A stretch of DNA of 28,949 bases from Candidatus Hodarchaeota archaeon (GCA_016839785.1 JAEOTQ010000237.1:1-28949), one strand, 5' to 3'; counted from the first letter of the stretch, positions 3,903 to 28,209 are shown. Notes: a model not told the origin generated them from the letters alone. Numbers and translations: made by a program.

Positions 3903-3966
3903 TCCATAATTCAACAAAAATCATTAGGACAAAAAGGGAAGAATATGGATTAACAGGAGACATTTT

Positions 3967-11127: not shown

Positions 11128-11385
11128 TCTAATTCACCTTTGTACATTTGTCAAACTTTCCTGTAAATACTCGGCTACTTTAAAATTATACTGAATACTA
11201 GAAATCATTATGGAAGAAATAAAAATGGTCTGACAAGTACATCCTTGTTTTCCTTCAGTCCATTCTAACTAGGCATTCTGTTCTTTTTAAATAGAAAGTT
11301 ATATTTTGACAATGTTATTTTATTATTTAAGAACATCCTAGTATAGAATTAATTAAAGGAGACTAGGTTCTAAATTTCTGGAAAG

Positions 11386-14300
11386 TTGAATATCATGTCG
11401 TCGGAAACAACAGAAGATTCTCTTGTCACAAAAAATGATCTTCATGAATTAGGTGTTGTGGCAACAGAATTACGATCAATTGACCCTACAGTGCAGGTAA
11501 TTTCTTCTTTAAATGAATCGCAAAAATTAATTACACAGATTCAAAAAATAGAAAAGGATTTAACGACTGCAGGCTTCTTTAAGAAAAGAGGTCTAAGCAA
11601 ATCTCTTTCTCAGAAGAAAAACCAGTATAACAAAACTACAGAGAAGCTTTTGAATACAGTTCTTGCTGGTTATAGACGAATTTACTTTGATTTAGCTAAA
11701 AATATTAAGGAAATAGCAAAATTCGTGCCCCAAGAGACAGGTAACATTAAGAATATCCAAATTCCAAGTTTAGAAACAACACTTATTCTAAAATTTAGCA
11801 ATGCAGTGTTAAAGATTTATAATAAGGTAGCAGAAGTACTAAAAGGGAAAAATATTTCTACTTTACTATTTAATCGTGAAATTATTGAATTATATGGAAA
11901 GTTTGTAAATTTTGACGAGGAAAAAATACGTATATCAAGCCAGACATCCAAAGCAAGTATACACGTTATGATAATTTCGGATCTATTGGGCCTTTATAAC
12001 AATCTAGAAGCAGAAAATGCATATTTAAAACAGAGAAGAAAGGGAACAGAGGGGAAAATCCAAGCTGAAATTGTTCGTATGGCCTCTACGTTACATCAAC
12101 ATCTTGGTACTATATCTTCGATCGGAATAAAACTTTCAAGCAATATTGAAACTCTTCAAATACATATACAAGAAATTCAAGGTGAGGCGGATACAAGTAC
12201 ATCTGTAGAAAAGCTTATCGAATTGGAGAAAAGGCTTAGCAGTCTAAGAAATGAGTTTATTAATTCGTTAAGAACGTATGAAATTTCATTAAAGACAGAA
12301 ACTGAAGATCAAATCGGGAGGATTATTCAGCTTGTTGGAGATGACGAAATCGACTCTTTTATAGTTTCAGCACCAAGTATTGATGTTTCTGCCTCTGAAA
12401 TTCCTGTAATCATACAAGATATCGAAAAAATACGATCATGGCATGCAAAATTGATCATAGCCCTGAAGAAACTTGTTAGCACGGCTGAACTAATAAATGC
12501 CGGGAAAACACTACAAGTGATGAAATTTCCTGTTCCAGATGATTTCTTCGACGATGTTAAAAGCATTGAGAAAGAAACTGAGAAAACAAGTGAGCTTCAG
12601 CTGTGGGTGGAGTTAGTGAAACGCTACTATGATTTCCGATTCGCACTTGCTGCTGAATGTCAAAATTATTTCTTCCAAATGCTTGAAAACCCACACATTC
12701 AAGAAGCCATTAGCTTAACTGACGGTCCTCCAATTCCTACTGTGAAAGATTTTGAATCACTTTCACCAGGACAATTAGTCACAAAAGCTCGCGAAATTAA
12801 GGATTGGGAAGCACGCCTGGTTGCATATTTCTCGAAACCAGCCCAGCAAAATTTACGACAGAATCTCATAAGTCTTTACGATACTCGTGAAAGTCTAAAA
12901 GACCTATTAGATGATGATTTGGTCGAAGAAATAGAGAATCTTAGAGAATATAAAAGCGAGGATGAAAAAGAAGTTCGTGATCTCGTTAAAGAAATAGATT
13001 ATTTGAATCAGCTATCAGCGAAAATACGACGTGTAATTTGGGTTGCAATTGATAGTGAAATTCATCCTATCGCTAATCAAATTACCACTCTGGAAACTAT
13101 TCCTCCGAAACTTAAAGCACATGTTCCTAACCTAGAATTAGAAGATTTAAAATCGATTAGAGAAGAAATAGAAATCTCCACTCAAGATAAAGTCAAGAAT
13201 TTACTTGATGAATTTGAGAAGATTACTATCTGGAAATATAAGATTTCAACCCGGATTCGCGAGAATATCAAAGGTATTTCATTTCCTTTAATTCCAATCG
13301 AAACACGATTTGATCTAAGAGAAAAACGCACTGAGATTGTGAAGCTAATTGATAGCCATGCTGAGGCTGGAAACATTGAAGCGATCGTACGTGAATACCT
13401 TTCATTTCTAGAAACAATTGAAGATATGAAAACTGAGATTCTAGTGGAGTTAAAGAAGCAAATTGATGGATTAGAAGCTGTTGATAAAAGATTATTCCGA
13501 TTGATGAAATCTGGAACTAGCAGTGTGAGTTATAGCTCAGAAAGTGAACTTGAGAATTTAGATTATTCTGAAGCATTGACGGAATATTGGCAATTGCTGA
13601 CATTTGTAGACAGAAAAATCTCTACTCTTGCTGAGTTGATGAATCGTGAAATATCATCACATATACAAGATTATTCCAAACTTCCTCCTCAATATTCTGC
13701 CTTTTTTGAGGAACCTCTTGCTCTTATGAATAAAAAACTAGCGGAATTTCAGACTCATAAGGATATCGTACGATTAGTGGATAGTTACGAAAGTTACAGC
13801 CTTGAAAGTATGCAATTAGCTAAGGATTCACTCATAAAATTACATCAGAACCTGTATAATTGGCTAAGAGTCAGTCTTCCTCGAATTCATGAAATTTCTC
13901 CTCTTAGTGATAGTGTTTTTGCCGCGGAGCAGAAGATTTACAACTTTCAACCTGAAGAAGTCTCGCATGAGAGATTAGCCCACGATTTAAGGCAATTGAT
14001 TTACTTCTATGATACTGAAATTGTTGCAGTTTTACTTTCCCATGGAGTATCAAAATCACGAGAAGTGCTTAAAGATGTAAATGACCTCAAGGAAGTAGGT
14101 ATAAACATCATTGAGTATGTTGGCTCTTATATAGAATCTTTCTCGGAGGTAATAGTAAAACATCAGGAAGATGTTCATCTAAGAGAGATTACTGAGGTGT
14201 TTGTGGAAATAGATAAATTGCAAAATGATAATAATGCCTGCAATGCAATTCGTACAACTGGAGAGCGCTATATAGCAGAAATCCAAGATACAATTGAATA

Positions 14301-14904
14301 TTTATTTGGTTCTTTTCAGATTGATCTTCGTGCCGAGGATCGAATCGATTTTGCATATTTAAGTGATTTCCAACGAATCGCTACCAATAATAATGTTCAT
14401 CATTTGACTCAGGCAATCATCAAACTGAATCAAATAAGAGCTGTCGTAGTTGAATTAATGAAAGTAATTGAAAAGGATCGTAATGCGAACTTACAGACCA
14501 AATTAGGAACTCTAGATTATTATTCAAACATTCAAGAGGTCTTCAAGCAATATTCCGATGAAGCATCAGAAAAGATATATCCTTTATCAAAATTACTTGA
14601 AGAACGCGCAGAGTTAATGAATACACATGATTTGCGACTTATATTGAATCTATTCCCAAAAATCGAAAGCCAACGAGAGGAGTGGGAAAAAGTATCAATT
14701 CAATTAAATAGATGGCATAGCGCATTTAGGATGTTTCGTGCTCGCTACTTACCTTCAGAAAACATTGAAGAGAATAAGAGACAATTTAAGGAGATAACGA
14801 AGAAAATAACAGAAACTTATCCCCGTAATAAAGTTATTGGAGCATATTTATCATTAGTAATGAAATTATTTATTGAAATTAAATCTGGTATAGAACTAGA
14901 ATAA
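11386..14904 (+). CDS. Large all-helical / coiled-coil repeat protein
   Basis: 1172-aa ORF rich in E/K/L/I with heptad character; no Walker A or TM segment seen. ATG 11395 is an alternative start. Confidence 0.85.
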   Translation: MNIMSSETTEDSLVTKNDLHELGVVATELRSIDPTVQVISSLNESQKLITQIQKIEKDLTTAGFFKKRGLSKSLSQKKNQYNKTTEKLLNTVLAGYRRIYFDLAKNIKEIAKFVPQETGNIKNIQIPSLETTLILKFSNAVLKIYNKVAEVLKGKNISTLLFNREIIELYGKFVNFDEEKIRISSQTSKASIHVMIISDLLGLYNNLEAENAYLKQRRKGTEGKIQAEIVRMASTLHQHLGTISSIGIKLSSNIETLQIHIQEIQGEADTSTSVEKLIELEKRLSSLRNEFINSLRTYEISLKTETEDQIGRIIQLVGDDEIDSFIVSAPSIDVSASEIPVIIQDIEKIRSWHAKLIIALKKLVSTAELINAGKTLQVMKFPVPDDFFDDVKSIEKETEKTSELQLWVELVKRYYDFRFALAAECQNYFFQMLENPHIQEAISLTDGPPIPTVKDFESLSPGQLVTKAREIKDWEARLVAYFSKPAQQNLRQNLISLYDTRESLKDLLDDDLVEEIENLREYKSEDEKEVRDLVKEIDYLNQLSAKIRRVIWVAIDSEIHPIANQITTLETIPPKLKAHVPNLELEDLKSIREEIEISTQDKVKNLLDEFEKITIWKYKISTRIRENIKGISFPLIPIETRFDLREKRTEIVKLIDSHAEAGNIEAIVREYLSFLETIEDMKTEILVELKKQIDGLEAVDKRLFRLMKSGTSSVSYSSESELENLDYSEALTEYWQLLTFVDRKISTLAELMNREISSHIQDYSKLPPQYSAFFEEPLALMNKKLAEFQTHKDIVRLVDSYESYSLESMQLAKDSLIKLHQNLYNWLRVSLPRIHEISPLSDSVFAAEQKIYNFQPEEVSHERLAHDLRQLIYFYDTEIVAVLLSHGVSKSREVLKDVNDLKEVGINIIEYVGSYIESFSEVIVKHQEDVHLREITEVFVEIDKLQNDNNACNAIRTTGERYIAEIQDTIEYLFGSFQIDLRAEDRIDFAYLSDFQRIATNNNVHHLTQAIIKLNQIRAVVVELMKVIEKDRNANLQTKLGTLDYYSNIQEVFKQYSDEASEKIYPLSKLLEERAELMNTHDLRLILNLFPKIESQREEWEKVSIQLNRWHSAFRMFRARYLPSENIEENKRQFKEITKKITETYPRNKVIGAYLSLVMKLFIEIKSGIELE

Positions 14905-14918
14905 AAGGAAGATCAGAT

Positions 14919-14966
14919 ATGACAATGGAAGAAACAGAAAGCGAAATATTTGCACTTGATCCTTAG
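14919..14966 (+). pseudogene. 15-codon stub resembling the N-terminus of the tubulin/FtsZ-like gene
   Basis: AAGGAAG then ATG, 14 nt after the 1172-aa gene stop. MTMEETESEIFALDP* versus MAIDDQESSEIFAIG at 24744; similarity stops just before the first GTP-binding Gly. Confidence 0.55.
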
Positions 14967-15481
14967 AATTCTTCTTTATCAGCGTGTTTTGTATTTTTGG
15001 ATACTACTTTCCTGCTTATTCTCGTGTCGTAAATCTTACCTAAGGACATAGATTTCGAGGAAATCATCACTTGCGAGTCTATTAGCTTGCATAATACAGT
15101 CTTCACACATCTCTTCCTTGAAAAGTCAGCAGTGGTAATATTTCATCACGTAAGTTACGAAAAAACCATTATACAATGCATACTCACCGAAAAGTGATTT
15201 GAACACAAAAGCGAGTGTTCTCATAAGTAGGAAAGTGACTGACTTTCACCAATCTATTTTGAAGGATGGAAAAGACCACCCCAAAACACATTAAGAGTTA
15301 CTACAAGTCTAAACAGGATGATTCGGAGTTGAGGAGAAATACTACTTGCTATGGCCTGAAAATCGACGAGAATCTCTTTGACTTGTAACCGAGAACGAAT
15401 AATATTGCATAGATTGAAATGTTGAGTCCTCTCGTCAGTGAGTCTTGCATAAGTGTCAAAACCTAATTTATTCTTTTTCAT
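14960..15481 (-). pseudogene. Probable decayed gene coupled to the M50-like gene
   Basis: The 75-aa ORF 15481-15254 overlaps the stop of 16346-15468. Downstream, protein-like fragments continue in shifting frames (MRTLAFVFKSLFGEYALY / WFFRNLRDEILPLL / FKEEMCEDCIMQANRLASDDFLEIYVLR*). Confidence 0.35.
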
Positions 15482-16346
15482 TGTAGAAGGAGGGAAAAAA
15501 CCGCGTTTTCTTAAACGATGACTGTTTCTTTTGCTCCCTACTATCTGGAATCTTGAGTAACACTGGATATTTCAGCTTAGTACTTCTCTTGAAAAATCTA
15601 ACAGTCACGAGTAAGAATGAAAGATAAAATAACGAATAAACTAAGGCTGCAATCAGGGCAGCTACTAAATCACCTTTTGATCGTAATGTCACCTCAACAA
15701 ATATTGAGAAAAATACAACATAAAGCCAGTTAACACAGAATTTTGGAACTAAACCCTGTCTTAGCATAGTATAGATGATCATCATCTGATCTGAAGAACT
15801 AGGCATCAAAGCGTGAAAAAGAACCAATGAGGCGTAGATATGTATTAGGAAACCCATCATTCCTCCTACTTCTATTAACGGTAGTAAAGCTAAATAAACG
15901 ATGAAAAAAGTTAGAGTGTGTTTCCAAGGAGCCATTGCTACCTTTATCATGTCGTCTAAGGTCGTACAAGTACAATAAACGTTTGAACCTTCAGCTCGCG
16001 TATCAATTTCAAAGCGATTATATACTCCGAATTCAATTTGTCTCTTGTCCCTGTTGGAAGGCTCTTTTATATGCCCTTGTTTTTCTTGCTCTCTATTTAT
16101 TTGTTCTTCGATTTCACGCGCCACCGTCATGTGTGCATGTAAGTGAATTAGTCTAAAAGGCCAGGTCAGAAAATCAGCGAGAGGATTTAGGAAAGAAAAT
16201 ATTAGTAATATGCATTTTACAAAGAAATAACTGAAAACAATGAACATTATGGCTTTGAATGGGTCAGATAAATCGAGCTGGCCGATATACCAACCAATAA
16301 AGGATTCTCCTAACGGTTGTAGAAAGTTTTCAAGTAAGGAGATCAT
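15468..16346 (-). CDS. Multi-pass membrane protein, degenerate M50-like/zincin metalloprotease
   Basis: Several hydrophobic segments; HLHAH where HExxH is expected, 'KVAMAP', and 'MPSSSD' as the third-ligand motif. Confidence 0.6.
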   Translation of the reverse strand: MISLLENFLQPLGESFIGWYIGQLDLSDPFKAIMFIVFSYFFVKCILLIFSFLNPLADFLTWPFRLIHLHAHMTVAREIEEQINREQEKQGHIKEPSNRDKRQIEFGVYNRFEIDTRAEGSNVYCTCTTLDDMIKVAMAPWKHTLTFFIVYLALLPLIEVGGMMGFLIHIYASLVLFHALMPSSSDQMMIIYTMLRQGLVPKFCVNWLYVVFFSIFVEVTLRSKGDLVAALIAALVYSLFYLSFLLVTVRFFKRSTKLKYPVLLKIPDSREQKKQSSFKKTRFFPSFYNEKE

Positions 16347-16375
16347 ATTTCTTCATAATATAATTCGAATTCTCT

Positions 16376-16424
16376 CTTAAATATTTGAAAATTCGGCTCT
16401 TTTACATAATTTCAAATTTATAAA
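16376..16424. promoter_or_regulatory. Divergent promoter pair with TTTYRARTWTWTAAR motif
   Basis: TTTCAAATTTATAAA (+, 16410-16424) and TTTCAAATATTTAAG (-, 16390-16376) at TATA distance from the two starts. Confidence 0.6.
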
Positions 16425-16442
16425 TAAAAATACGAATCAATA

Positions 16443-17720
16443 GTGATGAAAGCAACAAATATAGTAACAAGGGGTATACTAAATGCTCACAAGAATTATC
16501 TCAATGGAAAATTATTTCTTGAAGAAAAAAAACAAGAAAATGCTCTAGAATGTTTTTTAAAATCAAAAAATCTATTTCAAGAGGAATTAAATAGGTTATG
16601 TACTTTCGATACACGCTTGATGTGGGAACAAGAACTAAAATTAGTAAATCAAGAAATTTTTAAATTAGAAAAGGGAACTAAGCTAAATCTGGACAAGTTT
16701 ACCGAAGATACAGACTCTAGTTCGAGATTTGATAGGTGGATATCACGGATAAGAGAAGTACACCCAAGATCAGGAACAATGGATACAAATGTTATTGGTT
16801 TGGAATTGGTTAAAGGAACATTAGATAAAGTAATATCATTACCCCTAGAAAGACCTGATATTTGGATAATAAGTCCTTCTCCTCCAAGAAGTATTCTACT
16901 TTATGGAGCACCAGGATGCGGAAAAACACTAATTGTCAAGGTAACAGCTCAAAAAGCAGGTCTTCCCATATATAACATCACCTTAGGAGAATTACTAAGT
17001 AAATGGTTTGGAGAAAGTGAGAAAAAGATAGAATATTTATTTGAAGTTGCATATAAAGAACCTGATGGGTGCATTCTATTCTTTGATGAAATTGATGCCT
17101 TAGTTGGCCAAATGAGCAATGATTCTGATGCAATTAATCGAGTACGGAAAGCGTTTTTGACAGCCTTAGATGGTTATAAAGTACCAAAACCAAATAAAGT
17201 GATTGTTATTGGTTTGACCAATAGGCCTGATTTATTAGACGGAGCTACAATGAGACGGTTCGATAGAAGGGTTTATGTACCTCCTCCTAACTACGACGCT
17301 ATTCTGAAATTGATTCAAAATATTGTAAATAAAACTGACATGAATTTAGATCTATTCTCAGACTCATGGCAGAAAGTAATACATTCCATGCTTGGATTAA
17401 CTGCTGATGAGATATGTAAAATTATTCATGGTGCTATTTGGGAAACAGCAGACAGTATTATTAACCGAGAGGAAGAATTAGGGGAGAAATTCCTGAAAAA
17501 AATTAAAGATCTTTTGTTAGACATGACGCCTTATTTTTGTACATTTGAAGCACTGGAACCATCAGTATTTTTGTTCTTGGATAAACAATATGGATTTCCA
17601 AAGACGAAGGAAGAGGCTTATTGTTGGGAACCATCATTTAATAGCCGAAAACACCGTTTAATTCAACTACACCCCGAACCGAAGGTAATACACAAAAGGA
17701 AATTGTCAAGACGGATTTAA
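16443..17720 (+). CDS. Vps4/CdvC/katanin-clade single AAA+ ATPase with N-terminal MIT/TPR-like helices
   Basis: LLYGAPGCGKT, pore loop SKWFGESEK, FFDEID, TNRP..LD, RRFDRRVYVPPP; N-terminal helical hairpin 'AHKNYLNGKLFLEEKKQENALECF'. ATG 16446 is a likely leaderless start. Confidence 0.85.
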   Translation: MMKATNIVTRGILNAHKNYLNGKLFLEEKKQENALECFLKSKNLFQEELNRLCTFDTRLMWEQELKLVNQEIFKLEKGTKLNLDKFTEDTDSSSRFDRWISRIREVHPRSGTMDTNVIGLELVKGTLDKVISLPLERPDIWIISPSPPRSILLYGAPGCGKTLIVKVTAQKAGLPIYNITLGELLSKWFGESEKKIEYLFEVAYKEPDGCILFFDEIDALVGQMSNDSDAINRVRKAFLTALDGYKVPKPNKVIVIGLTNRPDLLDGATMRRFDRRVYVPPPNYDAILKLIQNIVNKTDMNLDLFSDSWQKVIHSMLGLTADEICKIIHGAIWETADSIINREEELGEKFLKKIKDLLLDMTPYFCTFEALEPSVFLFLDKQYGFPKTKEEAYCWEPSFNSRKHRLIQLHPEPKVIHKRKLSRRI

Positions 17721-17758
17721 AATTCCTGTATTACACTCCTAATTTGATGCGGATGATA

Positions 17759-18460
17759 TTATTTTATATTTAACTTATGTAACAGGTTTTTCTTTAGACT
17801 AGGAGATTTTGTATAAGAAAAGGTGCTTTCAGAAGTTTCAGATTGTTTTTTATTTCGACACTGCTTAGGTATTTCAGGGGAAAGAGTAGGATATTTGTGA
17901 AAAGTATTAGTTAATCCACATTCTTCACTTACCTCTGCAATACTAAGCAGGCGCATTTTGAATCCAGGTATCAGTTCATGCAATACCCCTTGGAAATTTT
18001 CTAGATGTTTACAGGTCTGTTTTAAATAATAGGATTGCTGTTCTTCTCCAAGCTTGGTCCATGGTTGAGCCATCAACAACTCGTAAATCACAAGGTAAAC
18101 TGAACCTTGCTGACTTTCAATATGAATTATGGAGAATTGATCTTGGAATCGTAATCTATCTAAATAATCCTCCGTTTCTACTGTTGAGAAGAATAGGATA
18201 CCTGTGACCGCATATAAAGACTGATTGCTATCTATAAGTAACGTATTTGGTATTGCATCAGCACTCATAAGACTAAGTTCAGCAATTGGTTCTCCTCTAA
18301 TAATCTCGTTTCGATTCAAAATTATTAGATAAAACTCTGCTCCAATGTAACCCAAAATACCTAATAACATTCTCATTAGTTTAAATTGAAACAAAAGCAT
18401 CCCTAGTTCATAAAAAGAAATAAAAACAAATAGCTTCAGGAGCATATCTTTTGATATCAT
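17759..18460 (-). CDS. Membrane-anchored protein (two N-terminal TM helices plus soluble domain)
   Basis: Hydrophobic residues ~7-49; starts 3 nt after the upstream gene's stop. Confidence 0.7.
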   Translation of the reverse strand: MISKDMLLKLFVFISFYELGMLLFQFKLMRMLLGILGYIGAEFYLIILNRNEIIRGEPIAELSLMSADAIPNTLLIDSNQSLYAVTGILFFSTVETEDYLDRLRFQDQFSIIHIESQQGSVYLVIYELLMAQPWTKLGEEQQSYYLKQTCKHLENFQGVLHELIPGFKMRLLSIAEVSEECGLTNTFHKYPTLSPEIPKQCRNKKQSETSESTFSYTKSPSLKKNLLHKLNIK

Positions 18461-18463
18461 ACT

Positions 18464-19510
18464 TCATCTATCTCCTAATTTTTTTATTTGTTTTCCCTCA
18501 TTGGTTTCCTGCTCCTTGTAGATTACATAAAGGGGTACTCCGAAGAGAACTCCAGTGAAGAAAATAGCCATTATCTCCTCAGGGATGGGGTGGTCAGGAA
18601 TATCTATTCTAGACCAAAAATTTGGTATATAATTAGTTTGAAAGTCGACTGTGTGAACTGAAATTTTAATCGTGTATTCACCGTTGTCACTTGTTTCACT
18701 GGGGAAAATTTTTATTCCTATTTCTGTGAAATTCTTATCTAGGATTAGTGTGAATCGTATGAGTGGATTTAACTGTGGTATGGTACTCAAAGTGGTACCT
18801 ATCAAAGTCAATGTTTCTATCTCAATATTGGTATTCAGAAGCAATGTTGAATACAACTTAGCATTAATGGGTAGACGCGTTAGAAATATCGAATTCAGAA
18901 CGAATCGTCGTTTTTGAAAAAATGATAAGTCTTTAAGTCGGATTTTGAATGTATCAGGCATAATTAATATATCAGATTCTGCAATTTCCAATATTTCCCT
19001 AATTATTATTTCATTAAAATCGAATTGTGCATTTATTCCGATGATACTCGGAAAATACTCCAGTGTGACATCTATTCGAAGATGCATCGAAGGGACAAAT
19101 GAGGATAGACCCTCTAATGGAAGAATTAGTACATTTTCTAGATTAAAATCATAATAGACATCGTAAATATGCTCTGTGTTACAAAATACACGCTCCCAAC
19201 TATATTCATCAATCTGCACGCAGAGGGTGATCTTTTTCAATTCAGAACCTGCATTTACTACAGTAAATAGTAAAAAGATATCACCACCGTAGAATTCGTA
19301 TTGGAAGGTCAAGGGTTGAATCCTAATACTAGTAATTTGTTGAGTAACATGGACTTGTTGAGATATACCTAGATCTCTATCCATGAACGGAGATTGTGAC
19401 ATCGTGGGAATAGCCGTTACAGTTTTAACTGAGGTAAATGTAAATAATCGAAGATTTATAAAGAGAAAAATAAGTAAAAGGAAAATACTATATGGTTGAT
19501 GTCGACTCAA
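18464..19510 (-). CDS. Predicted surface protein: signal peptide, beta-rich ectodomain, C-terminal TM anchor
   Basis: N-terminal hydrophobic stretch SIFLLLIFLFINL, alternating beta-strand patterns, C-terminal IMAIFFTGVLFGVPLYVIY plus charged tail; ATGA overlap with the hydrolase gene. Confidence 0.75.
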   Translation of the reverse strand: MSRHQPYSIFLLLIFLFINLRLFTFTSVKTVTAIPTMSQSPFMDRDLGISQQVHVTQQITSIRIQPLTFQYEFYGGDIFLLFTVVNAGSELKKITLCVQIDEYSWERVFCNTEHIYDVYYDFNLENVLILPLEGLSSFVPSMHLRIDVTLEYFPSIIGINAQFDFNEIIIREILEIAESDILIMPDTFKIRLKDLSFFQKRRFVLNSIFLTRLPINAKLYSTLLLNTNIEIETLTLIGTTLSTIPQLNPLIRFTLILDKNFTEIGIKIFPSETSDNGEYTIKISVHTVDFQTNYIPNFWSRIDIPDHPIPEEIMAIFFTGVLFGVPLYVIYKEQETNEGKQIKKLGDR

Positions 19511-20151
19511 TTCACTCCTCTCTCCTGAAATACAGATTTTAATAAAATATCAAAATCGTAACCATGGATTTCGTCAATATGTAATGGATCTCTTAAATTA
19601 TCAATAAGAATCAGTAAACAAGCAAGAACTACAACCCCTTTACATAATAGGACAATTCTATGGTTGATTCCACGTTCTTCTCTGCTTAATAAACTACTAT
19701 GAAGACGTAATTTTAATCTTGGTCTCGTATGCTGATTAAATAGATAGTTTTTGCGTCTATCCTGAGAAAATAGAGTGGATGTAAAGCCAATGGGAATTCC
19801 CTCCTCACTGAATATATCAAGAATCAAATGGGATCCAATTGAAAGAAATATCCCTCTTACAAGTAAACAGAATATCTGATTTTCGGTATTGACCCCTAAA
19901 AAGACAAGGAATAGAAATAATAAAATTATAGGGTTATGCGTAAGCGGATGTCTACATCTCTCTGCACAAGTTTTCATTTTTTGATCCGTACAGAAATACT
20001 TGTCCAGAATATTAGGAAAAACGCTAATAAAACTCAGGCCTACAGCAAAGGGGAGAAATAGAATCTGAATCATAGGTTTTTGCATATTGAGGAAAAGAAT
20101 ATCCAGCAAAATGAGTGAGAAAGCAAACCAGAAATGAGTACGATTCTCTAT
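19507..20151 (-). CDS. YdjM-like membrane metal-dependent hydrolase
   Basis: The frame stays open 14 codons upstream of TTG 20109 to ATA-GAG-AAT-CGT-ACT-CAT (xENRTH, the family's N-terminal TH motif), preceded by GAGGT. FPNILD, RHPLTHN, SHLILD..GIP. Confidence 0.75.
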   Translation of the reverse strand: MENRTHFWFAFSLILLDILFLNMQKPMIQILFLPFAVGLSFISVFPNILDKYFCTDQKMKTCAERCRHPLTHNPIILLFLFLVFLGVNTENQIFCLLVRGIFLSIGSHLILDIFSEEGIPIGFTSTLFSQDRRKNYLFNQHTRPRLKLRLHSSLLSREERGINHRIVLLCKGVVVLACLLILIDNLRDPLHIDEIHGYDFDILLKSVFQERGVN

Positions 20152-20161
20152 CGCTACAACC

Positions 20162-20251
20162 TCAATATTGATTGTGTTTGGTCTTTATAAATTCGAAATC
20201 ACAATTCGTGGATTTTGAATATTTAAGGTGGAATTAGGATCAATATTGATC
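20162..20251. promoter_or_regulatory. Symmetric divergent promoter pair with TCAATATTGA palindromes
   Basis: TTTCGAATTTATAAA (-, 20198-20184) and TTTTGAATATTTAAG (+, 20213-20227), each followed after exactly 12 nt by TCAATATTGA (20171-20162; 20240-20249). Confidence 0.65.
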
Positions 20252-20262
20252 AATGGTTTTGA

Positions 20263-21954
20263 GTGAGCGAATTGGGAACTGTAACAACACCTCCAACGAG
20301 AGTAAAGATTTCGTTATACCAAGATGACGTTTTAGTAGTTGAAACCAAGAGGTCTACGAACTTACTAGTAACAGATATCACCTTAGTATCAGTGATAGGA
20401 ATAATAGTTTATAACACAAGCAGTTTTTCATTAATCAGAAAGGTTATTGAAAATAACACCAGAGTCTCAATGTGGAGAGCTAATAGAATCGTACAAAAAA
20501 TTACCAAACATAACAAAATCCCTGTAGAAACATTATACAGTCATAATTTGATGATCATCAAAGAATCAATGTGTGGTTACGGATCGATACCAAAATTTTT
20601 GATGGAAAGAGCATATGATAGCTTAATAGAAAAAAGAACGGCGGTATTGAGCACTCTTTTGAATGGGTTTCAACTTAAAATCCTCTCAAAGAACTTATTG
20701 AAGAGAGCTTTTATTCATAAAAAAACAATCAAAGAATTATGGCAAGAAATTCCATACGATTTGGAGTTCGTCCGATCAGTCGCCGAATTGGAACGGGTAC
20801 CAAAACGAATAGTACCTTCACTGCCATTCAGCAATGGGAACATCAGAATTCCGATTGGTAGGTTATTTCTGAACTCGCAACGAGAAGTTGGATTTAATAT
20901 ACTTCCAAAACTAGTCATAATGGGAGGATCTGACCATAAACTTGCGATAGGAACATTACAGAGCTTCATTAAAACTGTGACGGTGAGAGGAGAAAAAGTT
21001 ATTATCATTGACCTAGGAAATGAGCTGGGTGGATTAAACGAAGCAACGAGTAGTGAGTCCAATCCCAATCTGCAGCTGAAGGAATTTCATATAGGAAGGA
21101 ATTTTCTTCTCAATCTGTTTAAGGTAGATATTCCTACTTCGCAAGAAAATCCGATGAGTAGGATGGTTTTTCAGGCAAATTCCATTGCCAATATTTTAGG
21201 TTATGCAAGTGATTCCACCGAAGTAATGTCCCATCTATCCTTATTGAAAACGAAGGTACTAGATTCGATCCAGAAACATTCGTCAAAGGATTATACACTA
21301 GCTCAATTCGTTGAATCAGAGGTGTTCGCAAAGCCAACATCTGAGTTTGAATTTTCAATTATAGAGCAACTAAGCGCGGAATTGAGTATTTTTGCAGGAT
21401 TTGACCATTTGAATCACATAGAGTTCGATCAAGAATATGATTTCTATCTCGATCCAAGTCCAGGAATAACGCTTTTCCATTTTCCTAACCAAATTTCTCC
21501 AATTAAACGTGTAACATTCGCTTTCCTCCTACAAAAAATCGGAATGAGGTGTGACCCAAAAACAGTAGTTGTCATTACAAATGCATCCCAGATGTTAAAA
21601 AATACTGAAGAAAATTTGCGAAATAGAGGTAATACATTATACGAGGAAACAATAGGGAGATATTGTGAACAGATAACCCGAACAGGATGTTTAACCCTAG
21701 TTACAAGTTCTTTTGCAAAACTTCATCCTGATATCAAAGAAATGAAAAGCAGTGTGATCTCCTTAAAGATGGTAGATCCTCAGGATAGGAAATGGTTAAT
21801 CGAGAGGTTTGCCCTAAATCGATATTTAGATAATCCAAATGATTTCTTGGAGAGTTTGGACGGAGAAGGATTGCTTTTTAGGCATGATATACCGCATACG
21901 GTTGATCATTATATTCCTTATACCCTGGAACCAATATTAGAGCAGATTTATTAA
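20263..21954 (+). CDS. HerA/VirB4/FtsK-superfamily (DUF87-like) protein with inactivated Walker motifs
   Basis: Motif order preserved: IPIG, LVIMGGSDHKL (Walker A site, no GKT), VIIIDLGNE, LNLF, VVVITNASQM (Walker B site, no DE), LTLVTSS (usually TQ), ISLKMVDPQD, L.GEGLL. Confidence 0.7.
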   Translation: MSELGTVTTPPTRVKISLYQDDVLVVETKRSTNLLVTDITLVSVIGIIVYNTSSFSLIRKVIENNTRVSMWRANRIVQKITKHNKIPVETLYSHNLMIIKESMCGYGSIPKFLMERAYDSLIEKRTAVLSTLLNGFQLKILSKNLLKRAFIHKKTIKELWQEIPYDLEFVRSVAELERVPKRIVPSLPFSNGNIRIPIGRLFLNSQREVGFNILPKLVIMGGSDHKLAIGTLQSFIKTVTVRGEKVIIIDLGNELGGLNEATSSESNPNLQLKEFHIGRNFLLNLFKVDIPTSQENPMSRMVFQANSIANILGYASDSTEVMSHLSLLKTKVLDSIQKHSSKDYTLAQFVESEVFAKPTSEFEFSIIEQLSAELSIFAGFDHLNHIEFDQEYDFYLDPSPGITLFHFPNQISPIKRVTFAFLLQKIGMRCDPKTVVVITNASQMLKNTEENLRNRGNTLYEETIGRYCEQITRTGCLTLVTSSFAKLHPDIKEMKSSVISLKMVDPQDRKWLIERFALNRYLDNPNDFLESLDGEGLLFRHDIPHTVDHYIPYTLEPILEQIY

Positions 21955-21989
21955 CATAGGAAGGACTCGCTCTCCTCTAATGAAGAAAA

Positions 21990-22026
21990 TTTTGAGTTTA
22001 TAAGTTTCAATTAGTATTGTTATTGA
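21990..22026 (+). promoter_or_regulatory. Promoter with the same 15-mer motif
   Basis: TTTTGAGTTTATAAG (21990-22004), then TTGTTATTGA after 12 nt; ATG at 22033. Confidence 0.55.
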
Positions 22027-22067
22027 ATATTAATGGAAGATCATGATTCTGAGGGGGAAGAACTTCG

Positions 22068-24389
22068 TTGAATGATGACGAACAAACCCAAACAAAACAA
22101 TTGGAAGATCAGAAAAGGAAGCAAAAAGAAGAGGAAAATGAGGACTCCAGAGAGTCAGAAAAATTAGACATATTGATGGAAGAGTACATGGACCAGATAC
22201 TAATAGAAGAAGAAAGTAAACCTTTACAAATCAGTGAAGAAGAGGATAAAAATGAAGAGACATCAATTGAAGTGGAGAGAAGGGAAAAGGAAGAAGAAAT
22301 AAGCGTAGAACTGATGAGGAGCACAGAAAAGGAGAAAACAGAAGTAAATTTTCAAGAGGAGGTCGAAGAAGTAGAAAGAGAGAAAGAACAAGAGGTGTTA
22401 CGGGAGGAGTACGAAGATCAAATACTGATGAGCAAGGGAAACACCGAAGAAAGTGTTAATGTTTTACAGGAAGAAAAAATTAGTAATCCAGAAGAAGAAG
22501 AGCAGTTAAAGCGTGAAACAGAAAATTTATTGAATGAAAAATATCAAACTCAGTATATTATCAGTGAAGAAGATATTGTTGAAAATCTAGGTGTAAAAAA
22601 GGAAAGCAGGGAGCATGAGATTGAGAAAACAATGGCGCAAAGGGAGAATTTAGAGGAAATCAAATCCGACGTTAAAAATAGTCAAGATATAAATTCGTTA
22701 ATTAAAGAATTAAACACACAACTTGAAACACGAGATCATTTGGACTCTAGTACCTATAGATTACTAACCAACCTTCATGATGAGGGTACCTATCCAAATA
22801 TTGCTTTTGTGTACAAAAGAGATGGGAGGAAAACAGTAGAACAACTCAATAGACACTTATATGATAAGCTCATAGATAATCAGAGATTAGGGAATTTTAG
22901 ATTAGAATGGCAACGATTCTGGTTTGAAGGCCTAGGTCAGATTGAACAGACAGAACATGGAAGAAGGATATTTTTACTGGATTTATCCAAAGAAGAAGAA
23001 CTCCCAACAAGCATGCGTAGAATTTTCTTGGCAAAGAATACGCATACTTGGAATACACTGGTACCAACGAAACGAGAATTACATAGCATGAATATAAGAG
23101 AATTTATCGATATTTTATTTGGAAAACGAGTGTCATCAGCGGATTTCGAAAATGTAAAGGACTTTACTTACCAGAAAAAAATGAATAATGTGTGGAGAGA
23201 GTTCCAGAGGGTATATAAGAAAGATTTCGATCTAAAAACCACGAAAAGACCTGCATTGTTTGCTTTGAAGCCCGAGTACACAAGAGAAAGCATCGAACAT
23301 ACTTTAATAGGAACATTCTGGAAGTATTATCATGGGCTAGACCGAATTGGGAGGCGAAATATGAAACAATGGGGATACAATAACTTACTGCAATTAATGA
23401 AAAATAAAGCCACAGGCGTTTATCCAACTATCGTCGATCCCAATTACATTGGTCAAAAGTTTGTTGTAAGAGTAGTAAACAAGGGGAGGGCATTTAAACG
23501 CTTGTTAGGTGAACTAGATGAGATAAAAGAAACTGACCATGGAAAAGTAATCGATAGAATATATCAGTCTTGGATCATTGACAACGAAATTCTTCACTCC
23601 AAGGTAATTGATGGATTGATGTGGGGCGTAAAAGAGGCACGATCAACTCACTATATTAAATTTGATAGCATTGCTCATTTAATGAATGAAAAAAACACTT
23701 ATGGAATCAATGCCGTACTAGAAGCATTTTTTGAAAATAAGAATGTCCTAGACTCCTTAAATACAGACTTAAACCAAAAATTTCGAGCTAGATCAGTGTG
23801 TACTTCCTCTGGGTATGCTAGAATTAATTCAGGTGCCTTAAGTACTGCGTATCCTGACCTGAAAATTCACACTGAAAAACCAATAAACGTGCAAATCAAG
23901 GATTTAGGTAAGTGTTTTGACCAAAATAAAAAAGAATTAGTTATATATGATCAATTTAAATCGTTTTTCGGGAAGTCAGATAATTTTGAAAACATTACTC
24001 TCCATCTCATTAATGGTGTGGATTTAACAAGTGTGTATGACGTGAAATCTCATCCGAATCTGACACAAAACAATGTAGGAATTATTACTATTGGTATTTG
24101 GGATGATACTGAAGGGATTAATAAGTTTGGAGAACTCTTTAGCGCACTCAGAATAGCTCAGGATTCTGGATATACTGACAAAGAGGCATTTGATACAGTA
24201 GTAAAATACATTGATGGAACAGGCCAGTCCTTTGACAAAACCGATGAGAATACGCTAAGAAAACTTCAAGGATTGTGGTCTAATGATCCTGCAAACCTAA
24301 TACTGAATGTCATTGAAGTATTCGGGGACAATTTTCAAGAGACCTCTGTGAACAGCATTGTTTCAGATACAACAAAAAAAATTATTTGA
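22068..24389 (+). CDS. Large protein with Glu-rich low-complexity N-terminus and globular C-terminal region (possible PD-(D/E)xK nuclease)
   Basis: First ~200 aa are E/K-rich; candidate motifs PDLKIHTEKPINVQIK and VDLTSVYDVK. Start uncertain (out-of-frame ATG at 22033). Confidence 0.75.
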   Translation: MNDDEQTQTKQLEDQKRKQKEEENEDSRESEKLDILMEEYMDQILIEEESKPLQISEEEDKNEETSIEVERREKEEEISVELMRSTEKEKTEVNFQEEVEEVEREKEQEVLREEYEDQILMSKGNTEESVNVLQEEKISNPEEEEQLKRETENLLNEKYQTQYIISEEDIVENLGVKKESREHEIEKTMAQRENLEEIKSDVKNSQDINSLIKELNTQLETRDHLDSSTYRLLTNLHDEGTYPNIAFVYKRDGRKTVEQLNRHLYDKLIDNQRLGNFRLEWQRFWFEGLGQIEQTEHGRRIFLLDLSKEEELPTSMRRIFLAKNTHTWNTLVPTKRELHSMNIREFIDILFGKRVSSADFENVKDFTYQKKMNNVWREFQRVYKKDFDLKTTKRPALFALKPEYTRESIEHTLIGTFWKYYHGLDRIGRRNMKQWGYNNLLQLMKNKATGVYPTIVDPNYIGQKFVVRVVNKGRAFKRLLGELDEIKETDHGKVIDRIYQSWIIDNEILHSKVIDGLMWGVKEARSTHYIKFDSIAHLMNEKNTYGINAVLEAFFENKNVLDSLNTDLNQKFRARSVCTSSGYARINSGALSTAYPDLKIHTEKPINVQIKDLGKCFDQNKKELVIYDQFKSFFGKSDNFENITLHLINGVDLTSVYDVKSHPNLTQNNVGIITIGIWDDTEGINKFGELFSALRIAQDSGYTDKEAFDTVVKYIDGTGQSFDKTDENTLRKLQGLWSNDPANLILNVIEVFGDNFQETSVNSIVSDTTKKII

Positions 24390-24743
24390 CACCTTTTCCA
24401 CTACTCTTATCTTGATAAAAATGTTTCGAAGGAAAGGTAATATTCCATTCTTTCCCCTAAGAGATTTATTAAGGTATTCGGTAAATTGGTAAAAAATCGT
24501 TTCCTCTGATCTTATTCTCATGTTATTAAATCTTATAATGACTGAATGCTTAAAGTAATTGAGAAAAATATTTCAAAACATTTATCTAATTCGGAAATAG
24601 TGTTGAGATTAATGAATTTCTTTGCTTAAAAAAAGAGTTAAAAACCCTCGGCATGCTAATATGCAGGGTTTATTATCATTAATCCTTAAATCGTTGATAA
24701 AGATTAAATTAGAAGTCAGATCAAATCAGTAGGTATAAAGAAA

Positions 24744-26117
24744 ATGGCAATAGACGATCAAGAATCTTCAGAAATCTTTGCGATCGGAATCGGCGAATGT
24801 GGAAGCAATTTAGTAGGGAGCTATTTAGCGAAATCCAAAAAAGGAGAACTTCCAGCACGCATACGTGAATTCTTAGTGATGAATACGGATAGGGGAGATT
24901 TATTAAAAGCACGAAAAAAATACTCAATCTCATCAAAGCGGACCTTACTCTACTCTGATGCAGAAATTGGAGTGGGTGGAAAATTCTCTGCAGGGTATGA
25001 ATCAGTAATTAATTCTGAGGACATTATCTTAAACCAGTTACAGGCTTTGGGATATGAAGGAATCAGTGGTTTTTGCATTTTTACAAGTTTTGGAGGAGGA
25101 ACTGGTTGTGGAGGGACTCCAGCATTAATTCGCTTACTACGAAAGAGGTTTGCAGAACAAGAAAAACGAAAGATATTCATCTACGTATTTGGAGTTCTCC
25201 CATTTGTAAACCAATCATCTGAAGCTGTTAATAGCGTCTGGGCACTGTCAAAACTTCTTCGATTACAATTAGAGGAAGGAAACATGGGTCCTGATCTTAT
25301 TCTTCTTCTTTCAAATAATACTATGCTGAGTCGCGTATTAAGTATGCAAAGAGGAGAAGCAGCTGATTTAATTACACGAGAAAAAGGACTGGATCTCACA
25401 GCTTTAGATAGCAATGTAACTAGACCGAATGTATTAGGTCAAACTGAAGCACCACTTCCTGTTCAAATGGAAGAAGCTTTCGTTGAACTAATTAATCCAT
25501 TAGCACTTGAGTCTATTGCAGAAATGCTTTCACCTGGGGTTCCAGAACTAGGTAAAGAGGTTTTACCTACAACTGATATTGGAGATTTTGCGCTTAAATT
25601 AGATAGTGTAGTAGTTCCAGCTATGTTCGATGATTTATCTATCTTTCCTGAAGTGGGAGATGTAGGAAATCAATTAGGAGCAGCAGTTGAGTATACAGCT
25701 GCACATTGCAGCCTTACTAATATGGGGAACAATCCTGCTGCTTCATCCGTATTTTCCGTATTAAGTGGACCTAAAGAGATTGCTCGAGTTGAATTCGACC
25801 CCTTATTGAAAAAAGCGCTCAGTCCTTTTCTAGCTAAGGGGGCAAGCATTTCTCCCACTTATTGTGCCTATGATGATGAAAAGGCACGAGCTTCTCTATT
25901 GTTATTATTCGGTTTACCACGAGTACCAGAATTATATGATATATTAGAAGAAGCCAAGTCGTTGATTCAATTACATAGTGGGGATTCAGAATTGAAACAG
26001 CACTGGTTTAAGAGATCAAAAGGGACAACAAAACAGGAATTAGAAAATGCTGTCAGTGATCTGGAAAAATTGTTTGGCTATTATATTAAACCAGATCAAG
26101 ACCAGGTAAATAAGTGA
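24744..26117 (+). CDS. Divergent tubulin/FtsZ-superfamily GTPase (CetZ-like grade)
   Basis: T1 GIGECGSNL, T2 MNTD, T3 GVGGKFSAG, signature SFGGGTGCGGTP (GGGTGCGG core at 25092-25115), GVLP, LSNN, T7-like TTDIGDF, C-domain LLLFGLP. Confidence 0.92.
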   Translation: MAIDDQESSEIFAIGIGECGSNLVGSYLAKSKKGELPARIREFLVMNTDRGDLLKARKKYSISSKRTLLYSDAEIGVGGKFSAGYESVINSEDIILNQLQALGYEGISGFCIFTSFGGGTGCGGTPALIRLLRKRFAEQEKRKIFIYVFGVLPFVNQSSEAVNSVWALSKLLRLQLEEGNMGPDLILLLSNNTMLSRVLSMQRGEAADLITREKGLDLTALDSNVTRPNVLGQTEAPLPVQMEEAFVELINPLALESIAEMLSPGVPELGKEVLPTTDIGDFALKLDSVVVPAMFDDLSIFPEVGDVGNQLGAAVEYTAAHCSLTNMGNNPAASSVFSVLSGPKEIARVEFDPLLKKALSPFLAKGASISPTYCAYDDEKARASLLLLFGLPRVPELYDILEEAKSLIQLHSGDSELKQHWFKRSKGTTKQELENAVSDLEKLFGYYIKPDQDQVNK

Positions 26118-26161
26118 TTTAGGTTCATTTAAGTAGATAAGTAAAGAGGTAGTTAATCAGT

Positions 26162-27169
26162 ATGAATTTTAGTGAAGATCAAAATCCCTCAAAAGGTCCT
26201 TCTACCGATCAGAGGCCTCTCGATGTTCTAGAAAACAAAATAGATTTTTTAATAAATTTGAATTTAACTAGTTTAAATTTAATTACTGCTCTGAGTTCAT
26301 GTATTAGTGATAGAGATGGTATTCCTGATGGAGTACGCAAGGAATTAAGATCAATCCATTCAGCTTTACCAAATCTATTAACTTTTGACAATGCAAAGCC
26401 CGTTTTTATGGATCTTGTGGAAAAATTAAACGCCAAGCTAGCTGAAATTATTGGAACACCCGATACTACTAATATTATTGAACAAGCTTATGATACTTCC
26501 ATCCCAGTTACATCAAATAAAGAAATAATGAAAGGTTTCAATAGGTATGAAAGTTTGATTGATAAATGGGGAATAATTGAGTCCATTGAAGGACTCATGA
26601 GTTCATATAGCACCTTATCAAATTTAGCTTTTCCTACATATTATCTTCACGGGTGCAAAGAGATTCAAAGATACACATTAACACAAGAAATTTCGAATCC
26701 CAATTCTCATGAAATTATCCAATTTCCATGTCTAAAACTTAAGGATTTGATCTTTAAGCTATTGCGAGAAGCACCTGCAGCTCGTTTATTACAGAATTTG
26801 AAAAAAATGTTTCCCCTGCAAAGTAAGATAGAATTGGATGCTTCAGAAGAATCAAATATTCAAGAAATTGTGAAAAAATACATTTCAAATATCTCTGATT
26901 TCCTTAATGGAAAAAGAACATTACAGGATACCATACGAATAAGTACATCAGTTCTTCAGCAATATAATCTAGGGTCTGGAGATTTAGAATCTCGGATTCC
27001 GAATGTATCTTTTTCTGTTGTGAAAGATATCCAAAAAGAATTTCAACTTGCTAGAGGAAATGATTTTAAACAATTTGTCTATTCAGAAACTATTGTTCTA
27101 ATTCATCGCTTAAACGATGCTATTCTACGAAATGATAGGTTTATAGTATTACTGCGACGACTTAAGTGA
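26162..27169 (+). CDS. Helical hypothetical protein downstream of the tubulin-like gene
   Basis: 335-aa ORF, GAGGT upstream, 44 nt after the previous stop; no motif recognised. Confidence 0.8.
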   Translation: MNFSEDQNPSKGPSTDQRPLDVLENKIDFLINLNLTSLNLITALSSCISDRDGIPDGVRKELRSIHSALPNLLTFDNAKPVFMDLVEKLNAKLAEIIGTPDTTNIIEQAYDTSIPVTSNKEIMKGFNRYESLIDKWGIIESIEGLMSSYSTLSNLAFPTYYLHGCKEIQRYTLTQEISNPNSHEIIQFPCLKLKDLIFKLLREAPAARLLQNLKKMFPLQSKIELDASEESNIQEIVKKYISNISDFLNGKRTLQDTIRISTSVLQQYNLGSGDLESRIPNVSFSVVKDIQKEFQLARGNDFKQFVYSETIVLIHRLNDAILRNDRFIVLLRRLK

Positions 27170-27326
27170 TATCTACTACAATTTATACGAAATTCTTGAA
27201 TTAGTATAGGTTTATATTATTCACTTATCGCTAACAAAAATAGAAAGCTTCTTGTAGATACACCTTTAGTAAAATTAACACAATCTGTAATTCAACAATA
27301 TTGGAGTAGAAGAGCGAAGTGAGAAC

Positions 27327-28205: not shown

Positions 28206-28209
28206 ATGA

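Follow-up and report, generated by a model that had tools for sequence, protein, structure and literature searches.

The question raised by this locus is how a single gene for a tubulin-like protein came to have two starts, 9.8 kb apart, on one strand of one contig. The stretch of DNA concerned, referred to below as the window, comprises 28,949 nucleotides (nt) from Candidatus Hodarchaeota archaeon (GCA_016839785.1 JAEOTQ010000237.1:1-28949), and is contig C230 of a fragmented metagenome assembly (4.04 Mb in 248 contigs; genome G000 below). Here, a gene for a 1172-amino-acid (aa) helical protein, the rod gene, is followed by a short open reading frame (ORF) that encodes only the beginning of a tubulin-like protein, and the intact tubulin-like gene starts again on the far side of a block of other genes. 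The initial annotation, made from the sequence alone, had proposed that this block was inserted at the 5′ end of the tubulin-like gene and supplied a replacement start, or, alternatively, that a duplication had left the stub. Comparison with related genomes bears out the former: the tubulin-like gene carries a 9.8-kb insertion with a replaced start, a conclusion of which we are as good as certain. The features involved are as follows.

11386..14904, + strand: 1172-aa helical (rod) gene, an ORF, the original upstream neighbor of the tubulin-like gene
14919..14966, + strand: stub, consisting of the native gene start MTMEETESEIFA and then LDP and a stop codon from insert DNA; equals the N-terminus in genomes G004 and G014
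14943..14953, + strand: 11-nt junction repeat, left copy (GAAATATTTGC), with which the native sequence ends ahead of the insert; blastn break-point at 14953 against G004 and G014
14954..24770, no strand: inserted block of 9,817 bp, which the empty sites of G004 and G014 lack
24744..24770, + strand: substitute start, ATG plus 8 codons, MAIDDQESS; blastn break-point at 24771
24771..24781, + strand: right copy of the 11-nt junction repeat, GAAATCTTTGC
24744..26117, + strand: Tubulin/FtsZ-superfamily gene (PF00091), 457 aa, intact, read from the substitute start

The stub occupies, as the initial annotation had it, an operon position behind the rod gene and a ribosome-binding site: it begins 14 nt past the stop codon of the 1172-aa ORF and runs for 15 codons (ATG ACA ATG GAA GAA ACA GAA AGC GAA ATA TTT GCA CTT GAT CCT TAG, including the stop), encoding MTMEETESEIFALDP. 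Its product is the native N-terminus of the tubulin-like protein of G004 and G014 (MTMEETESEIFAIGIGECG), two genomes of the same genus in which the site is empty, and its nucleotides are as in G004 at 34 of 36 positions. In blastn comparisons, window positions 9184-14953 and 24771-28947 align to adjoining stretches of G004 (L005, 3-5764 and 5754-9941) that overlap by exactly 11 nt (L005 5754-5764), and G014 gives the same picture. Since the two flanks are contiguous in G004 and G014, the insert comprises positions 14954-24770, the stub is the native start, and the ATG with its 8 following codons came with the insert; the empty-site genomes hold no counterpart of this substitute start. The insertion point lies at residue 12-13 of the protein, where the Pfam domain begins, after the Ala codon of E-I-F-A in the first strand-coding segment and just before the invariant GIGECGSN loop, and the native ribosome-binding site, ATG and 12 codons have been left behind the rod gene as a dead-end stub.

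The likeness between the two starts deserves closer consideration, as it was the short DNA match between them that first drew attention to the locus. This match is as originally described, with GAAATATTTGC (at 14943) and GAAATCTTTGC (at 24771) identical at 10 of 11 positions; by itself, however, an 11-mer of this kind is not significant, as it occurs three times in the window when up to one mismatch is allowed (at both sites and at 8638 on the minus strand). The peptide likeness carries more weight, with a local BLOSUM62 score of 31 against a maximum of 19 among the 489 other ATG-started 13-mers in the window. The two starts are homologous as protein and not at the codon level: the stub uses AGC for Ser where the substitute start uses TCT or TCA, and the substitute start is one codon longer. 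These differences in codons and length indicate that the substitute start is a diverged copy of the start of a tubulin-like gene, and not a target-site duplication. A local duplication, the alternative offered at the outset, is rejected on the same grounds, together with the lack of a counterpart to the substitute start in the empty-site genomes. The best terminal inverted repeat near the ends of the insert (14973-14995 with 24681-24703; 23 nt, 74% complementary, with a 9-nt perfect core) is weak for AT-rich DNA and was not used.

To place the insert in its wider context, 41 genomes (G000 included) were searched with both proteins, giving 21 other genomes of the genus, all with both genes. Among the 22 genomes of the genus, the site is occupied in three, the genes are adjacent in 18, and one (G019) is not assessable, its rod gene running off the contig and no orthologous tubulin-like gene being found. 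The tubulin-like gene therefore follows the rod gene directly, on one strand, in 18 of 21 congeners (among them G001, G003-G012 and G014-G018), and the two genes are adjacent also in two genomes of the sister family. This agrees with the proposal that the insert has uncoupled the tubulin-like gene from its original upstream partner, and with the stub being the N-terminus that the nearest empty-site genomes use. The native start, M...ESEIFAIGIGECG, is found in 17 uninterrupted congeners.

Related inserts interrupt the two further occupied genomes, G002 and G013, at exactly the nucleotide used in the window. In G002 the insert is 4,257 nt long and holds one long ORF, a 1202-aa homolog of the 773-aa gene at the right end of the window's insert; it matches window positions 22671-24193 (82.7%) and 24491-24634 (72.3%). 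Its left junction reads ...GAA ATT TTT GCC followed by CTC, its right junction ...GTA TTC GCA ATC GGA, its substitute start is MSDVKLEGSEASVFA, and its junction repeat is identical at only about 5 of 11 positions. The G013 insert exceeds 8 kb. Right after the rod gene of this genome stands the stub MSIEGGPESEIFA, continued by SREIKVLLLRERRV (SREIK...) to a stop codon, the first 13 residues of which are the native start of G010, G015 and G018, members of its own clade; on a separate contig, the end of a 563-aa-type gene (its C-terminus) is followed by two genes of the 773-aa type (745 and 511 aa) and these by the tubulin-like gene, with the substitute start MSELSEGSSIFC. Each occupied genome thus has a stub native to its clade and a differing substitute start of its own. 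Furthermore, the left break-point is identical in the three inserts (right after the GC of the Ala codon), and the DNA just inside it is unrelated among G000, G002 and G013.

A locus tree built on the rod and tubulin-like proteins, concatenated, from 17 genomes gave the grouping ((G000,G004)0.95,(G002,G014)0.997); the incomplete genomes G005, G009, G013, G016 and G019 and the two of the sister family were left out of it. As the occupied G000 and G002 each have an empty sister, the insert was gained or precisely lost at least two times. The site has therefore been filled at least twice, with a third occupation in the distant G013 clade, or else vacated base-precisely at least twice, and the process is site-specific either way.

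Two of the empty-site genomes show irregularities of their own. In G006 (L025, G006:C238) the genes are adjacent with a 100-nt spacer, there is no stub, and the tubulin-like gene has an aberrant start, METVNSNTSQVFCIGLGECG, whose Cys is also present in the insert-supplied start of G013; this junction may be the scar of a lost insert that left its substitute start behind. In G009, the tubulin-like gene is split over contigs C78 and C282 (L008, L009), with an overlap of about 46 nt at codons 42-58, away from the insertion site, which is probably a break in the assembly graph due to strain variation.

We also considered the integrity of the two junctions in Logan contigs from three runs of one study, which may include the source sample of the genome and in which the depth of the region is about 5x. 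The left junction is bridged by X2 record 10 (14489-15301), which shows 73 differences and thus comes from a related strain, and the right junction by X1 record 8 (24376-25096) and X2 record 15 (24522-25325), both without differences. With both junctions bridged by independently made contigs, the structure is not an assembly chimera, the possibility that read mapping across the junctions had been meant to address. Two odd back-joins with 9-12 extra letters (X1 24726 to 18952; X3 25064 to 22083) were not accepted as joints.

What, then, does the insert contain? Scans of the whole window for tRNA genes and for Rfam matches gave none. The insert holds eight ORFs, including a doubtful one of 75 aa; the remaining seven are the following.

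15468..16346, - strand: 292-aa multi-pass membrane protein; no family; homologs in the same module at other loci
16443..17720, + strand: 425-aa classic-clade AAA ATPase; Pfam AAA PF00004, E 4.1e-35
17759..18460, - strand: 233-aa protein with hydrophobic N-terminus; no family; conserved in the module
18464..19510, - strand: 348-aa protein with hydrophobic N- and C-terminal segments; no family; conserved in the module
19507..20109, - strand: membrane protein of 200 aa with weak likeness to YdjM (PF04307 at E 5.4e-4, under the cut-off); conserved in the module
20263..21954, + strand: 563-aa protein of HerA/VirB4 fold (by predicted structure), with degenerate Walker A (GGSDHK)
22068..24389, + strand: orphan 773-aa gene, candidate mobility nuclease; homologs abut the right junction in G002 and G013

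The first six of these genes (292 aa through 563 aa) are found again, with their order preserved, at different chromosomal loci of at least 6 of 21 congeners, namely at G004:C128 (L019), G019:C7 (L035), G003:C165 (L036) and G013:C191 (L038), and in part at G002:C91 and G018:C343. The copy on G004:C128 has 74-76% nucleotide identity and, as far as its 9.8-kb contig shows, is not at the tubulin site; no second right junction was found in G004, G014, G019 or G013 (query window 24150-24800), and no integrase at the other module loci that were scanned. This six-gene membrane/ATPase module is the cargo of the insert. The best NCBIfam model for its 425-aa ATPase is CdvC (E 8.7e-42, far below the cut-off), and PADLOC gave only generic AAA (IetA) matches on the module (E 2.6e-34 for the ATPase). 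For the 563-aa protein, the Pfam search gave no match and the PDB profile search was empty, and the assignment comes from the AlphaFold model (predicted local distance difference test score, pLDDT, 68.3), which has 132 Foldseek matches in the PDB at E <= 0.001, headed by HerA (4d2i, E 1.3e-9), and superimposes on VirB4 (4ag5) with a template-modeling (TM) score of 0.64 and a root-mean-square deviation (rmsd) of 4.8; the protein atlas likewise leads to DUF87/HerA. Its putative Walker A motif departs from GxxGxGK[ST], reading GGSDHK, and an alignment of six homologs retains G222 and S223 with no Lys at the motif position.

The cargo differs wholly between the inserts, as seen from the left part of the G013 insert, where L017 (G013:C361) 1420-2768 carries a Cas5-like ORF (PF09704 at E 4e-4, under the cut-off) and, next to it, an ORF of 255 aa, both co-directional with the rod gene. 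We note in addition that, in the window, the divergent intergenic regions 16363-16446 and 20162-20249 share palindromic AT-rich motifs (inverted repeats I1, I2, I4 and I5), which suggests that the two divergent gene pairs may be regulated in common.

The 773-aa gene is the sole gene common to all three inserts, and it always stands at the right end, co-directional with and immediately upstream of the restarted gene. Its family is small, with 6 proteins at E <= 0.001 among 5.8 billion and 30 representatives among 1.84 billion; Pfam scans of 12 of the 30 distant representatives gave no family, the protein atlas no usable match, and the PDB sequence search nothing better than E ~1. In the structural model (residues 190-773, pLDDT 75.2), however, the archaeal Holliday junction resolvase Hjc can be aligned to residues 355-491 (1ob9: Z 4.0, rmsd 3.6, 89 of 124 residues; 2wiw, 1ob8 and 2eo0 on the same stretch: Z 3.6, 3.5 and 3.1). 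Of the nine aligned members covering this stretch, seven have Y-[PS]-D, 13-14 residues and then [VI]-Q-I-K-D, and the Asp and Lys are kept in 5 of 5 distant representatives. The predicted structure thus gives a hint that the 773-aa protein may have a restriction-endonuclease-like (Hjc-like) core. A VIA-align search of 48,161 chains matched only the C-terminal helical bundle (491-564; best Z 6.2) and was not used as evidence.

Further evidence on how the insert spreads comes from the DNA just past the right junction. When G002 is compared with G014, its empty sister, differences affect 23 of the first 150 nt (15.3%), as against 61 of 1150 (5.3%) in the rest of the gene (Fisher p 2.8e-5), and in nine comparison pairs, seven empty-empty and two with the occupied G000 (G000-G004 and G000-G014), the corresponding ratio is at most 1.4-fold. 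In the first 250 nt and not beyond, all six outgroups (6 of 6) are also farther from G002 than from G014, and the left flank is 94-98% identical right up to the junction. The tract in G002 therefore indicates a foreign piece that is longer than the 15 substitute codons and ends inside the gene (150-250 nt), as would be left by recombinational repair.

Taking these observations together, we consider a homing-type, recombination-dependent route of spread to have about an even chance of being correct. In such a route, a site-specific nuclease would cut the uninterrupted and highly conserved target, which codes for the invariant nucleotide-binding-loop region; the 773-aa protein is the only candidate for this role in cis. 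An occupied allele would next serve as the template for repair of the break; on the right, homologous recombination would resolve within the tubulin-like gene, and on the left the break-point would be fixed. Occupied alleles would be immune to cutting because their substitute start differs and the target is split. The insert would thereby spread, or would once have spread, without an integrase, with the six-gene module riding along as cargo. The unrelated left arms of G000 and G002 on an identical left break-point are what is expected if the break-point is the cut site. Furthermore, the fixed left break-point, the sliding right boundary, the nuclease-like gene beside the substitute end and the invariant target together fit the patterns known from mobile ORFs (mORFs) of fungal mitochondria and from T4-type homing. 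The more specific proposal, that the 773-aa family is a new type of homing nuclease with a divergent restriction-endonuclease/Hjc-like core, which targets the nucleotide-binding-loop coding sequence of an Asgard tubulin homolog and spreads through archaeal chromosomes by break repair together with its own gene start and, in some lineages, a six-gene passenger module, is tentative, and we would judge it less probable than the route itself.

A number of observations weigh against nuclease-driven homing. The divergent tract is resolved only in G002: in the window's own genome, the difference between the first stretch and the remainder (19.3% vs 15.4% for G000 vs G004, p 0.23) resolves no tract, and none was resolved in G013 either. 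The 773-aa protein belongs to no Pfam (even at E <= 10), PHROG or NCBIfam family and shows no GIY-YIG or HNH motif, and its model has no Foldseek match in the PDB at E <= 0.001. The Hjc alignments, at Z ~4, are within the range of chance arrangements, and the residue two before the Lys, expected to be acidic or polar and Gln in the close members, is L or M in the distant ones. Solitary chromosomal paralogs of the 773-aa gene (G002:C63 and G019:C128) stand among housekeeping genes with no duplication of a gene end, and the large proteins encoded after HerA-like genes have in common with the family, its solitary paralogs included, an acidic motif (..EEKLLAE.PY.DQ.VIE) that spans some 50 N-terminal residues (hhalign probability 68%) and sits on otherwise unrelated bodies (window 22068-22230; L037:7332-10850, L036:12186-15452, L014:3149-6691). 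From the shared motif, the 773-aa protein may be a component or a substrate of the module rather than a mobility enzyme. The tree of the 773-aa family is, moreover, compatible with the host tree. Finally, no empty-site or circular joints, which the initial annotation had suggested looking for, were seen in the Logan contigs of the three runs, a low-depth (~5x) source in which rare forms are dropped.

With regard to these same proteins, the idea that the solitary paralogs replace the start of a downstream gene resembling that for alanyl-tRNA synthetase was rejected, as no stub was seen. The large proteins after HerA-like genes were likewise rejected as members of the 773-aa family, having only the acidic N-terminal 50 residues in common with it; this motif may be a recognition tag for the module.

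The strongest alternative to homing is integrase-type integration of the kind seen for SXT/R391 at prfC, in which a circular element whose attP mimics the 5′ end of the gene would recombine with attB at the short core ATNTTYGC, the recombinase acting in trans or having been lost or become too divergent to recognize. We consider this possible and, on present evidence, somewhat unlikely. It would account for the left break-point being identical in three genomes with each stub native to its host clade, for the short repeat at both ends (10 of 11 positions in G000), and for the VirB4/HerA-fold protein and the membrane proteins, since a former transfer apparatus could have left these behind; there is also a precedent in the Asgard integrative and conjugative element (ICE) Yucahu-i, described as a 10.9-kb element with a tyrosine integrase and an 11-bp motif (PMC11529989). 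However, the initial remark that no recombinase is visible holds after searches of Pfam, PHROGs and NCBIfam: none of the eight insert ORFs matched a family of integrases, recombinases or transposases, and none of the scanned ORFs of the G002 and G013 inserts did so, including the single-gene 4.3-kb insert, though a very divergent enzyme could escape these searches. The repeat falls to 5 of 11 identical positions in G002, the divergence in G002 reaches 150-250 nt past the core, which is unexpected from a crossover at the core, and the HerA-like protein is without the Walker A lysine. No circle or excision joints were seen, in data that are weak and of low depth. Searches for relatives in viral contigs (with profiles of the 773- and 563-aa families) returned none, as did those in metagenome contigs (with the C-terminal part of the 773-aa protein and with P0004), and they gave no free or complete copy of the element.

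A second alternative is a single old insertion that would date to an ancestor of the genus and have been passed down vertically until it became immobile, with cargo exchanged inside it and with most lineages having lost it precisely by recombination with empty alleles. In line with this, the tree of the 773-aa protein roughly mirrors the host tree, its divergence scaling with that of the hosts (identity 73% to G002, 66% to G004 and 50% to G013), the part shared by the G000 and G002 inserts has the same nucleotide identity (82.7%) as the flanks (80-82%), and the insert and its flanks do not differ in GC content (32.5-36.9% in the insert). Nevertheless, it requires at least two independent base-perfect losses (G004 and G014) as well as losses in all other clades, it leaves the left arms of G000 and G002 unrelated despite their shared break-point, and it sits poorly with stubs that are intact and clade-native, the one in the window being as in G004 at 34 of 36 nt where the flanks average ~80%. 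We therefore regard it as improbable, noting also that precise loss implies a site-specific or recombinational mechanism, such that this explanation overlaps with the other two. Lastly, an artefact, be it an assembly chimera at ~14958 or a fortuitous short ORF resembling a gene start, could appeal to the non-significance of the 11-nt match alone (3 matches in the window) and to an assembly in 248 fragments, yet it is almost certainly wrong given the independent Logan contigs across both junctions, the same structure in two other genomes, the identity of the stub with the native start of the sister genomes, and a peptide score of 31 where the 489 controls reach 19 at most.

Whichever way the insert arrived, the restarted gene is intact. 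Its protein is 95-96% identical to those of G004, G014 and G002, and over 449 alignment columns the lineage-specific amino acid changes number 6 in G000, 4 in G004, 6 in G002 and 5 in G014. This lack of any excess means that the gene is still under constraint, or that the insertion is recent. Having lost its place beside the rod gene, the tubulin-like gene would have to be transcribed from within the insert, and two elements near the right end are of potential relevance here.

24574..24586, + strand: CAAAACATTTATC, a block of 13 nt that is conserved at the right end of each of the three inserts (alignment of G000, G002 and G013)
24642..24671, + strand: hairpin followed by UUUAUUAU (U-rich tail), downstream of the 773-aa gene; -12.7 kcal/mol, z -2.3

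Our guess is that the 13-nt block is a promoter or a binding site. The hairpin at 24642-24671 was not called by a simple terminator scan.

We turn now to the target gene and its surroundings. The 457-aa protein begins with MAIDDQESSEIFAIGIGECG, has the GGGTGCG signature readable in its sequence, and matches Pfam Tubulin (PF00091) over residues 10-171 with E 1.4e-16 and 61.7 bits (cut-off 33). The rod protein matched no Pfam family. The host is an Asgard archaeon, with a Roadblock/LC7 protein, a folliculin-like protein, an Arf-family GTPase, archaeal Nre and CDC48 encoded in the window, and one homolog of an insert protein labeled Heimdallarchaeota archaeon in its source. Upstream of the rod gene, a run of eukaryote-signature-type genes extends over window positions 351-7821; the individual neighbors are the following.

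351-842: Roadblock/LC7-like gene
1204-2520: folliculin-like gene (PF11704, E 2.4e-6)
6853-7821: 322-aa Arf-family GTPase with C-terminal extension
26162..27169, + strand: 335-aa helical gene, the conserved downstream partner of the tubulin-like gene, syntenic in G004, G014 and G002

Asg.Tub is the name given to an Asgard tubulin-like group by Santana-Molina et al. 2023 (PMC9871819). The target gene may belong to this Asgard-only, CetZ-like clade. A second, paralogous pair of rod and tubulin-like genes is present on contig C79 (G000:C79:41126-45808; 1142 and 448 aa, with a 12-nt gap), with 23% (rod) and 54% (tubulin-like) identity to the pair in the window; it was found in 8 genomes of the genus and is uninterrupted in all those seen.

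The implications are several. In the archaea that stand closest to eukaryotes, selfish DNA has landed repeatedly, and with nucleotide precision, in a cytoskeletal gene, which survives because the insert brings a spare start. The locus offers a candidate for a new nuclease or recombinase family, comprising one orphan protein, a defined 60-nt target, and natural occupied and empty alleles. The insert breaks the rod-tubulin operon, for which expression studies and annotation must allow, and it marks an uncharacterized six-gene AAA/HerA-like/membrane module as mobile cargo.

It remains to compare this insert with known systems. The parallel to SXT drawn by the initial annotation holds for the outcome only: no recombinase was found in any of the three inserts, and the tract in G002 extends beyond the repeat, which would not be predicted from a simple crossover at an att core. 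In the 1999 work of Hochhut and Waldor, the SXT element is said to supply a new 5′ end, with prfC remaining functional. Like the insert here, SXT/R391 elements are site-specific for the 5′ end of a conserved chromosomal gene; they are, however, ~100 kb in size and driven by Int, compared to inserts of 4-10 kb in an archaeon with no integrase found, a short and imperfect repeat, and, in G002, foreign sequence beyond that repeat. According to the relevant sections of PMC2791158, their insertion into prfC, at its 5′ end, uses the tyrosine recombinase Int and nearly identical attP and attB sites.

Within Asgard archaea, aloposons and HeimV/HeimM elements (of Heimdallarchaeum) and Yucahu-i (of Atabeyarchaeia) are likewise chromosomal inserts. 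Aloposons of Heimdallarchaeum, as portrayed in part of PMC8813620, have tandem genes for proteins of 3,000-6,000 aa and integrate at tRNA genes, and we rejected an aloposon identity for the present insert on account of these giant tandem genes and tRNA targets. Yucahu-i is similar in its size of 10.9 kb and its 11-bp motif, and differs in having a tyrosine integrase. The insert described here targets the start of a protein-coding gene, and no protein family was detected that it has in common with the described Asgard elements.

Free-standing homing endonucleases of T4-like phages (seg and mob; intronless homing) need no intron or intein, can have a distant cut site, spread through double-strand-break repair in which flanking sequence is co-converted, and favor conserved targets, to go by the excerpted account in PMC2988022. 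The divergent tract in G002 resembles such a co-conversion tract; unlike the present insert, which splits and restarts a coding sequence and in which the nuclease is a candidate only, the seg and mob genes sit between genes.

A further likeness is to the mORFs of fungal mitochondria (Allomyces atp6; Glomus atp6, atp9, cox2 and nad3), which, in the sections of PMC3630166 concerned, bring a foreign in-phase gene end and leave the native remnant beside it, the remnant clustering with close relatives, the inserted copy being divergent, and an endonuclease ORF adjoining the inserted end. Here too, the native remnant is like that of close relatives and the inserted end is foreign (G000, G013), with presence and absence at a fixed site among relatives. 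The differences are that mORFs replace the 3′ end, in organelles and by way of LAGLIDADG or GIY-YIG enzymes, while the insert here replaces the 5′ end with its start codon and presumably its promoter, on an archaeal chromosome, with an orphan protein and several kb of cargo. In the titles, abstract openings and passages that our searches returned, no case was found of an insertion in an Asgard tubulin-like gene, nor of such a spare gene end on an archaeal chromosome, nor of one for a gene start where an integrase is lacking.

Overall, an insert that splits the end of a gene and brings a spare one is thus of a known kind, represented by bacterial ICEs at prfC and by the 3′ ends of fungal mitochondrial genes. 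The new aspects, as far as we found in the literature searched, are a replaced start, an archaeal chromosome, the lack of an integrase or known homing family, a multi-gene cargo and an Asgard tubulin target. If the 773-aa protein should indeed be a homing nuclease, this insert would be the first chromosomal, 5′-end mirror image of the fungal mitochondrial mORF with its replacement gene end.

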